In this document: piece after piece, positions 2,326 through 2,796 of the stretch
Position numbering within the stretch: the first letter of the stretch is position 1
Layout of the letters: every line of letters starts with the position of its first letter
Source: a virus
Taxonomy: Duplodnaviria; Heunggongvirae; Uroviricota; Caudoviricetes
IMG/VR virus record: IMGVR_UViG_3300045988_151230
Strand: one strand, 5' to 3'
DNA: 64,000 nucleotides
The notes under the pieces: generated by a model
The model's input: the letters and a program-made list of their open reading frames with translations, nothing else
Database searches by the model: none
What the model was told of the DNA's origin: nothing
Translations under genes and position numbers: made by a program

Positions 2326-2357
2326 TAAAAAGCCCAGTTGACTAGGCTGGGCTTTTT
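2326..2357. terminator. bidirectional intrinsic terminator (AAAAA-GCCCAG...CTGGGC-TTTTT)
   Basis: 6-bp GC stem flanked by A5 and T5 runs in an AT-rich ORF-free region. Confidence 0.45.
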
Positions 2358-2390
2358 AAAAGGAAACAGAGTTTGCGGCTCTGTTCCTGA

Positions 2391-2414
2391 GCCATAAGTA
2401 TCTGGCGACTGAAT
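2391..2414. repeat. direct repeat copy 1 (core TAAGTATCTGGCGACT)
   Basis: 16-bp core identical to the copy at 2570-2585. Confidence 0.4.
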
Positions 2415-2565
2415 TAAGATTAACCGAATGTACTGGATTCATCAAGAAACGTTGAGTGGTCATACTAGGTAATAATGACCATTTACTAAACATCGTTGTT
2501 CTCAAAGAAGATTTAAGTCCAGGTTTTTGGTGACTCTAAAACCTTACCTTAACTCGAAATCGTGC

Positions 2566-2589
2566 CGTAAGTATCTGGCGACTACAGAT
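2566..2589. repeat. direct repeat copy 2 (core TAAGTATCTGGCGACT)
   Basis: Second copy, about 70 bp upstream of the small hydrophobic ORF. Confidence 0.4.
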
Positions 2590-2657
2590 ATTGCAACTGC
2601 AAAGGCAAGCCCAAAGGTATTTGCAGCTAGGCGCGATAAAACTAAGTGAGGCCTGTT

Positions 2658-2741
2658 ATGGTTAACTTACTGTTCAAAATCGTGCCGCCGATGTTCGCGA
2701 TTATCAAAGCGATCATTGAGTACGTAAACCAGCGTCCATAA
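2658..2741 (+). CDS. small hydrophobic peptide, 27 aa (MVNLLFKIVPPMFAIIKAIIEYVNQRP)
   Basis: ATG with GAGG 7 nt upstream; followed by a hairpin at 2755-2779; below the ORF-track length cutoff. Confidence 0.3.
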   Translation: MVNLLFKIVPPMFAIIKAIIEYVNQRP

Positions 2742-2754
2742 CGCTAGTTGCTAC

Positions 2755-2779
2755 AGGCCCCATCAAGAGCATGGGGCCT
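2755..2779. terminator. hairpin AGGCCCCA...TGGGGCCT followed by a T-rich tract
   Basis: 8-bp perfect stem immediately after the small ORF stop. Confidence 0.35.
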
Positions 2780-2796
2780 CTTTATCGTACTATTGC

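Follow-up and report, generated by a model that had tools for sequence, protein, structure and literature searches.

The DNA analyzed here, a 64,000-nucleotide (nt) stretch of a Caudoviricetes virus (Duplodnaviria; Heunggongvirae; Uroviricota; IMG/VR record IMGVR_UViG_3300045988_151230), is referred to as the window, and around positions 2330 to 2780 it carries a compact module of two predicted genes read from opposite strands. The first is the gene for a predicted 84-nt small RNA, a putative antitoxin (2327..2410, minus strand), identified by a covariance model and a conserved promoter; the second is the gene for a 27-amino-acid (aa) hydrophobic peptide, a putative toxin designated type B (MVNLLFKIVPPMFAIIKAIIEYVNQRP; 2658..2741, plus strand), identified by its frame and codon bias. 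The peptide mRNA has a structured 5' leader (2518..2657, plus strand), defined from an alignment of 24 leaders. Comparisons were made across a family set of 66 loci from plasmids, prophages, and metagenomes, comprising 49 unique modules, 46 of which had full upstream sequence. The common layout was a terminator, a hairpin, repeat copy 1, a spacer of ~110 to 150 nt, a 5' hairpin, repeat copy 2, an invariant hairpin, a Shine-Dalgarno sequence (SD), one or more peptide genes, and a terminator. An initial annotation of this DNA had described it as an AT-rich stretch free of open reading frames (ORFs), with two repeat copies, two bidirectional terminators, and a small hydrophobic peptide ORF with its own ribosome-binding site; the observation was confirmed, with each listed element present and one detail overstated. 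No ORF of ≥50 aa lies within 2330 to 2780, as described, and the AT richness is mild only, with a GC content of 0.39 to 0.44 versus 0.45 to 0.50 in the flanking genes; the lowest GC content nearby (0.34 to 0.36) falls at 1900 to 2350.

The small RNA, the start of which was placed at 2410 from the conserved promoter, consists of a single-stranded 5' tail (AGUCGCCAGAUACUUAUGGC), a hairpin (GGAAACAGAG/CUCUGUUUCC), an intrinsic terminator, and a U-run. A covariance model built from 25 unique members scored 95.3 bits in the window, where a single copy was found. These 25 RNAs are 81 to 86 nt long and share two helices and a tail with an invariant GCC...GGC; the helices were 96.5% paired with 36 double-change cells, a result reached by 0 of 500 shuffles. 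Pairing fell to 29 to 67% in slid-alignment controls and was 88.4% for the plus strand versus 96.5% for the minus strand. The promoter (2417..2445, minus strand), with a -35 hexamer TTGATG (2445..2440), a 17-nt spacer, and a -10 hexamer TAATCT (2422..2417), is kept as TTGAAG/TTGATG-17-TAAGCT/TAATCT/TAAGAT in 29 of 29 unique family sequences and scored ~9.4 bits, as computed by hand with an approximate sigma-70 matrix, versus ≤4.9 bits for any plus-strand candidate. The terminator is a perfect 13-nt inverted repeat (TTAAAAAGCCCAG/CTGGGCTTTTTAA; 2325-2337/2347-2359), symmetrical in this lineage. It includes an A-run and a T-run and is bidirectional in form, as had been annotated; a terminator scan flagged the minus strand only, and the relatives L012 and L015 have an A-to-G change in the terminator after which only the minus-strand RNA retains a G·U pair. 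The covariance model found one small RNA gene per locus in all 64 loci with enough upstream sequence, the remaining 2 of the 66 being cut at a contig end, and in the 46 modules read in detail the gene always lies upstream of the leader on the opposite strand. A candidate second small RNA on the left (2270-2357, plus strand) was rejected; it was a weak match of 25 bits, mostly from the shared terminator, and its flank lacks conservation in the family. Within 2240 to 2359, a possible plus-strand promoter, TTGCAT-17-TATCTT, could direct synthesis of a ~90-nt RNA that stops at the shared terminator; the -10 region of this left candidate (ATCTTAATTC; 2264-2273) is an inverted copy of the -10/start region of the small RNA (2411-2420).

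The leader of the peptide mRNA is the best-conserved part of the module in distant relatives, and 24 unique leaders support five helices, which were 93% paired with 23 double-change cells and were equaled by 0 of 500 shuffles. The predicted elements, all on the plus strand, are the 5' hairpin P1 (2521-2527/2538-2544); the long-range helix P2, which joins UCGUGCC to GGCGCGA (2560-2566/2630-2636) and encloses P3 and P4; the target hairpin P3 (2570-2576/2586-2592), with GGCGACUAC in its loop; and the invariant hairpin P4, CUGCAAA/UUUGCAG (2597-2603/2620-2626), with a small inner helix. The P3 stem is GUAUCU/AGAUAC, GUUAAC/GUUAAC, or CACUG/CAGUG, depending on the lineage, and its loop presents GGCGACU, the complement of the first seven nucleotides of the small RNA (AGUCGCC). 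An SD, GUGAGG (2646-2651), stands 6 nt 5' of the ATG at 2658, and the stop codon lies at 2739-2741; the peptide ORF has its own ribosome-binding site, as had been annotated. The mRNA terminator (2755..2786, plus strand) consists of a stem-loop at 2755-2779 followed by CTTTAT; it has no U-run on the minus strand and is therefore not bidirectional, contrary to the initial annotation. Relatives have a GC-rich hairpin and a T-run of other sequence at the same place.

Several further signals were seen in or near this transcription unit. A palindrome, GGTCAT-N11-ATGACC, at 2458-2481, between the small RNA and peptide genes, shows compensatory change in Escherichia marmotae (GGTCGT..ACGACC) and could serve as an operator or, within a longer leader, form an RNA hairpin. 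A minus-strand promoter-like site, TTTACG-17-GATAAT, lies inside the peptide ORF at 2700-2728; similar hexamers persist in other lineages and coincide there with conserved codons, and the site, if active, would yield a cis-antisense RNA across the SD and start codon. In the relative L189, the spacer contains tandem GGTTTAGAAC/GGAAC motifs in three to four copies ~110 to 150 nt 5' of the leader, and such motifs are also present in L150, L152, and L159; a regulator of the toxin promoter may bind to them. Another direct repeat, TCGAAATCGTGCCG/TCAAAATCGTGCCG, at 2554-2567 and 2674-2687, joins the leader to the ORF codons for FKIVP, and both of its copies are able to pair with GGCGCGAT at 2630-2637. 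An alternative helix, in which the TCRAAATCGTGCCG repeat shared by the untranslated region and the ORF pairs with GGCGCGAT, was rejected as a family feature; the minimum-energy fold of the window uses the ORF copy, and the pairing is mismatched in most lineages.

The peptide of the window has a best 19-residue hydropathy window of 1.85, in the range of a membrane span, and the family peptides are 26 to 28 aa long, with one hydrophobic span and a net charge of +2, comparable to Ldr, TisB, and DinQ computed alongside. The frame is intact in every family member, and variable sites fall at the three codon positions in the ratio 15/6/23 for type B (15 unique genes) and 11/5/17 for type A. At this comparative level, the peptide gene is shown to be under coding constraint. 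The type B consensus is M[VLA][ND]L[LI][FIL]K[IV]VPP..I[IV].A[IL][IV][ED]YV[NH]QRP. In some relatives, the only peptide is a 28-aa type A (MQMLLLFLKLAHPV[AT]VI[IV][ML]TL..[YF][WF]K.R); in others, type A stands in tandem with a 26-aa B' form. Types A and B align without gaps, indicating that they are paralogues; in the window lineage, the B gene stands directly behind the SD that elsewhere serves A. A HMMER search of the 31-aa GTG-start form against 1.84 billion representatives returned only the peptide itself and one 56-aa miscall, and an exact peptide look-up in protein collections gave only entries that were unnamed or called "hypothetical."

The two genes are connected by a direct repeat. 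The 16-mer TAAGTATCTGGCGACT, both copies of which had been seen in the initial annotation, has exactly two occurrences on the plus strand (2395-2410 and 2568-2583), versus a chance expectation of 0.02 matches even when 2 mismatches are allowed. With one A/G difference, the repeat lengthens to 20 nt (2391-2410 and 2564-2583). Copy 1 (GCCATAAGTATCTGGCGACT; 2391..2410) is the DNA of the 5' antisense tail of the small RNA, and copy 2 (GCCGTAAGTATCTGGCGACT; 2564..2583, plus strand) is the predicted target site in the mRNA leader, ~75 nt 5' of the start codon. Since the two RNAs are read from opposite strands, the direct repeat in DNA becomes complementarity in RNA, and the first 20 to 23 nt of the small RNA are complementary to the peptide mRNA leader. 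The duplex with the small RNA would take up the 5' strand of P2 and P3. For the 5' 25 nt of the small RNA and the mRNA, a duplex of -38.6 kcal/mol was predicted, versus -15.7 ± 2.6 kcal/mol for shuffled tails, and the cognate duplexes in eight lineages were continuous over 20 to 23 bp, with predicted energies of -38 to -45 kcal/mol. In an 8-by-8 cross-lineage matrix, cognate pairs gave the best or near-best duplex, and several noncognate pairs were much weaker, such as the window small RNA on the L006 leader (-16.5 kcal/mol).

The two copies of the repeat change jointly. Among the 46 full modules, there were 13 distinct copy-1/copy-2 variant pairs, with core changes common to both copies (TAAGTATCTGG, AATGTATCTGG, TTGTTAACCGG, or TAAAACACTGG, and further GGCGAC, GGCAGC, or GGCTAC). 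Moreover, the differences from copy 1 to copy 2 within the conserved 20- to 23-bp duplex, at no fewer than six distinct sites, were all A-to-G or C-to-T. G·U pairing survives such differences only when the minus strand of copy 1 and the plus strand of copy 2 are the ones transcribed; the opposite assignment would give A·C mismatches. It is extremely improbable that the repeats are DNA-level elements, such as protein-binding, iteron-like, or recombination sites, accompanied by a small ORF that arose by chance. Some family members do lie near plasmid replication genes, and DnaA-box-like sequences stand just left of the module (2220-2241); against this are the direction of the copy differences, always the one that preserves RNA pairing, and the flanks of both copies, whose conserved RNA helices show compensatory changes and strand bias. 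The ORF, moreover, has a codon-position bias and a frame that is never lost, and a promoter and a terminator are conserved around copy 1. In sum, what sequence comparison demonstrates is the presence of both predicted genes on their respective strands, the pairing between the RNAs, their folds, and the constraint on the coding sequence.

The same covariation bears on the proposal that the small RNA mainly regulates other host or phage mRNAs in trans, the leader repeat being a decoy, a sponge, or an incidental target. A near-match to the target at 14 of 16 positions (TACGTATATGGCGACT) was found at 43712-43727 (minus strand), on the sense strand of a 411-aa AAA_5 ATPase ORF; this site has two mismatches, lies within a coding region, and is probably due to chance. 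The target and the small RNA covary across at least six specificity classes in wholly different genomic contexts, and stepwise covariation of this kind is hard to reconcile with a conserved external target. Regulation in trans as the main role is accordingly considered very unlikely.

The module is widely carried. Among 5,426 complete Escherichia coli genomes, 115 (~2%) carry the region in identical or almost identical form, at 10 chromosomal sites and on 106 plasmids, with the majority of copies on ~110-kb SSU5-like phage-plasmids. The type of source of the window is a ~110-kb E. coli plasmid like that of strain LF82, the plasmid copy of which, at 81,099 to 81,592 of NC_011917.1, matches the module with 99.8% identity; the region also matches "Escherichia phage Cyrano," and the same block is present in a chromosome inside a lambdoid prophage. 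More distant blastn matches placed the module on plasmids of Citrobacter, Klebsiella, Enterobacter, Kosakonia, and Shigella, in unrelated contexts, some of them beside repA or repB. Taken together, the module appears to move as a unit, being found in SSU5-like phage-plasmids, in lambdoid prophages, and, adjoining repA/repB, in conjugative plasmids. A leader motif with fixed spacing, ACTGCAAAGG-N11-GT-N-TTTGCAGC-N-AGG, was run on viral and metagenome contigs and retrieved 34 viral and 20 metagenome loci, all of which were family members; a looser pattern, ACTGCAAAGGN{8,16}TTTGCAGC, gave 120 chance matches and no relative on genome contigs.

In the window, the module is flanked by an S24-peptidase (HumD-like) gene on the left (1606-1995, minus strand) and a hypothetical gene on the right (2797-3423, minus strand), and in identical plasmids the RefSeq annotation leaves the gap between these genes empty. 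A LexA box (TACTGTATACACATACAGTG; 2012-2031), the only one near the module, precedes the HumD-like gene. In two prophages of unrelated context, the module is again flanked by a HumD-like gene (L137, 6100-6429, minus strand; L142, 7495-7881, minus strand), a loose linkage. Just left of the module are a perfect DnaA-box consensus (TTATCCACA; 2220-2228) and a near DnaA box (TTATGCACT; 2233-2241), both of which are kept in close relatives, and several distant relatives have a DnaA-box-like TTATCCACA/TTATCTACA left of the small RNA terminator. Elsewhere on this phage-plasmid are the full-length housekeeping-type genes apbC (468-1568, plus strand) and, adjacent on the plasmid outside the window, metG, and a cluster of four tRNA genes (Ser, Thr, Tyr, and Asn) lies at 50797-51347 (minus strand).

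The arrangement was compared with those of known type I toxin-antitoxin systems. In nonoverlapping systems as defined in T1TAdb, the antisense RNA is located ≤300 nt 5' of an mRNA that it does not overlap, with ≥15 nt of complementarity (PMC8594479). Here, ~108 nt separate the small RNA start (2410) from the first conserved leader position (2518), and the complementarity is 20 nt; as in type I systems generally, a gene that has its own SD and encodes a small (<60 aa) hydrophobic peptide neighbors a noncoding RNA gene complementary to the putative toxin mRNA. The initial annotation had likened the layout to that of type I toxin/antisense-RNA loci or of a gene for a small membrane protein under small RNA control, and this likeness gained comparative support from the repeat covariation, the G·U-compatible differences, the coding constraint on the peptide, the co-occurrence of small RNA and peptide genes in 64 of 64 loci, and a dinQ/agrB control from E. 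coli K-12.

The DinQ/AgrB system resembles the module in its divergent, nonoverlapping small RNA and toxin mRNA; in a direct repeat between the small RNA 5' region and the long toxin leader (34 nt in K-12 and 20 to 23 nt here); in a 27-aa peptide; and in a small RNA consisting of a tail and two hairpins, AgrB being the best Rfam match of the window small RNA. The K-12 dinQ/agrA/agrB locus, used as a positive control, gave the same direct-repeat signature under the same tool. However, the AgrB model (RF02891) scored 27.6 bits, below its gathering threshold of 40, and the family covariance model had no match in K-12 agrA/agrB. The DinQ (NF041472) and DinQ-like (NF041473) models did not match the peptide at an E value of ≤10, whereas the K-12 DinQ control scored 54 bits. 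There is, in addition, one small RNA gene here rather than an agrA/agrB pair, and the module is on mobile elements, whereas DinQ/AgrB occupies a fixed chromosomal site, the arsR-gor intergenic region of E. coli. Unlike in DinQ/AgrB and TisB/IstR-1, no LexA box (CTG-N10-CAG) was found in the promoter/leader region of any module.

The ZorO/OrzO system of E. coli O157 likewise has a divergent, nonoverlapping arrangement in which the 5' end of the small RNA binds a site in a long toxin leader, far 5' of the SD (PMC8594479). OrzO-P (RF02083) was the best Rfam match of the relatives L003 and L007, but its best score, 34.2 bits (L003), compares with a gathering threshold of 60, and the window itself had no match. 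The 29-aa ZorO sequence has no evident similarity to the window peptide; ZorO and ShoB themselves returned no model from Pfam or NCBIfam. TisB/IstR-1 shares the divergent small RNA and a small helical membrane peptide toxin with a polar stripe, and its binding site lies ~100 nt 5' of the start codon, where a ribosome standby site and RNase III cleavage are involved. It differs in that PF13939 and TIGR04459 did not match the peptide and detected the TisB control, and in that the target here lies in a hairpin within a long-range helix instead of an open 5' stretch. Hok/Sok, Ldr/Rdl, and Fst/RNAII are similar in being plasmid or prophage borne and in having small membrane peptides and highly structured toxin mRNAs, and the "xPxx" proline in the span and the basic C terminus (..NKR, ..KDR) recall Ldr and Fst. 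In these three systems, however, the antisense RNA overlaps the target gene, and here it does not. PF13940 and NF033608 did not match the peptide (Ldr control, 93.7 bits), no hok or sok Rfam match was found in 1500 to 3500 at an E value of ≤1, and the peptide has 27 aa versus an ~50-aa Hok with an overlapping mok frame.

An Rfam scan of the whole window at gathering thresholds detected tRNAs only, and all other matches were subthreshold (AgrB, 27.6 bits versus 40; OrzO-P, 34.2 versus 60; RNAI, 34.2 versus 47). A replication-control reading of the RNAI, CopA, or Inc type, prompted by the RNAI match, was rejected; no rep gene lies downstream, a terminator closes the peptide gene, and the gene after it is read from the opposite strand. 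Searches of the literature by exact peptide and DNA strings and by topic gave no description of the module. The subthreshold Rfam scores, the lack of model matches, the absence of a LexA box, and the shared repeat signature together imply that the module works like known systems and belongs to none of them. We conclude from these comparisons that it probably represents a new family within the known type I toxin-antitoxin class, one that is absent from the databases and literature searched.

The locus is thus likely to be an RNA-regulated two-gene module built like the divergent, nonoverlapping type I toxin-antitoxin systems, and the following course of events is proposed. A comparatively strong, conserved promoter would drive the 84-nt minus-strand small RNA, and a weak, putative promoter would drive a plus-strand mRNA of ~270 nt with a long structured leader, the peptide gene, and a terminator; this contrast between a strong small RNA promoter and a weak mRNA promoter is the usual antitoxin/toxin asymmetry. 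The single-stranded 5' tail of the small RNA would pair with 20 to 23 nt of the leader, at a site spanning the 5' strand of the long-range helix and one arm and the loop of the small hairpin, and the tail (AGUCGCC) and the loop (GGCGACU) probably make the first contact. If the analogy to IstR-1/tisB, OrzO/zorO, and AgrB/dinQ holds, the long, perfect duplex would turn the mRNA into an RNase III substrate, block ribosome loading upstream of the start codon, or both. Synthesis of a membrane-damaging peptide would be kept off while the element is present, and loss of the element, or of small RNA synthesis, would permit synthesis of the peptide, resulting in addiction or exclusion. The transcript ends, the toxicity of the peptide, its repression by the small RNA, the RNase III/standby-site mechanism, and the biological role are inferred.

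Several results weigh against this interpretation or limit its form. A search for a consistent plus-strand sigma-70 site for the toxin gene found none, the best candidate reaching ≤4.9 bits. When the target was forced to be unpaired, the predicted accessibility of the SD was unchanged in 46 of 46 family mRNAs; simple refolding, in which binding of the small RNA hides the SD, was thus unsupported in silico and was rejected as the main mechanism. Since the refolding model failed, RNase III cleavage and/or interference with upstream ribosome loading is favored, the route described in publications on IstR-1/tisB and OrzO/zorO. Even with no small RNA bound, the SD of the window mRNA is almost fully paired in the predicted fold, which would fit an intrinsically poorly translated primary transcript. 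Gene conversion could in principle make two nearby repeats covary; it does not account for the one-directional G·U pattern. Lysines occur within the hydrophobic span, and the peptide is less hydrophobic than DinQ or TisB. Finally, no family peptide matched any Pfam or NCBIfam model at an E value of ≤10, and hence no toxin family, in searches in which genuine DinQ, TisB, and Ldr were detected by the same models.

These properties of the peptide also bear on a different proposal, in which the genes and the pairing are the same and the peptide is a nontoxic small membrane protein that modulates, for example, a transporter, lysis timing, or superinfection exclusion, its level being tuned by the small RNA; the module would then not be a toxin-antitoxin system. 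The putative nature of the toxicity, the lower hydrophobicity of the peptide relative to DinQ and TisB, the charged residues in its span, and the lack of a match to a known toxin family all fit this proposal, as does the position of the prophage modules among accessory early genes. The surrounding architecture speaks for a toxin instead. A divergent small RNA and a long structured leader are features of four type I families, which also share 20 to 23 nt of complementarity far 5' of the SD and the combination of a weak mRNA promoter with a strong small RNA promoter. The small RNA and peptide genes co-occur strictly, the module is found on plasmids beside replication genes, and the paralogous peptides occur in tandem or singly, as they do in other type I toxins. 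A nontoxic peptide is therefore regarded as rather unlikely, and a type I toxin-antitoxin arrangement is retained as the preferred interpretation.

Type I systems are hard to find because their partners are tiny and fast evolving, and their distributions have been thought to be narrow (PMC5367252). The module described here is a well-supported family that was missed by standard annotation, Pfam, NCBIfam, and Rfam; it adds a widely carried, unannotated RNA/peptide pair with natural specificity variants and tandem peptides, and it overturns nothing. A broader view, which is speculative and which we hold only as a possibility, is that phage-plasmids, prophages, and conjugative plasmids carry an unrecognized family of addiction or exclusion modules in which one or two paralogous pore-forming peptides are under the control of a single small RNA that acts through a tail-to-loop contact in a three-helix leader, with at least six mutually orthogonal specificity classes. 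If this is true, each of several related elements sharing a cell would protect against its own toxin alone. The family would then amount to a naturally occurring set of orthogonal RNA switches and, in clinical Enterobacteriaceae, to a hidden factor in the stability or incompatibility of phage-plasmids. Should the peptide be toxic, the module would be a maintenance or exclusion determinant of elements circulating in clinical isolates, and its covarying small RNA/target pairs would be ready-made orthogonal posttranscriptional switches (compare PMC12721322).

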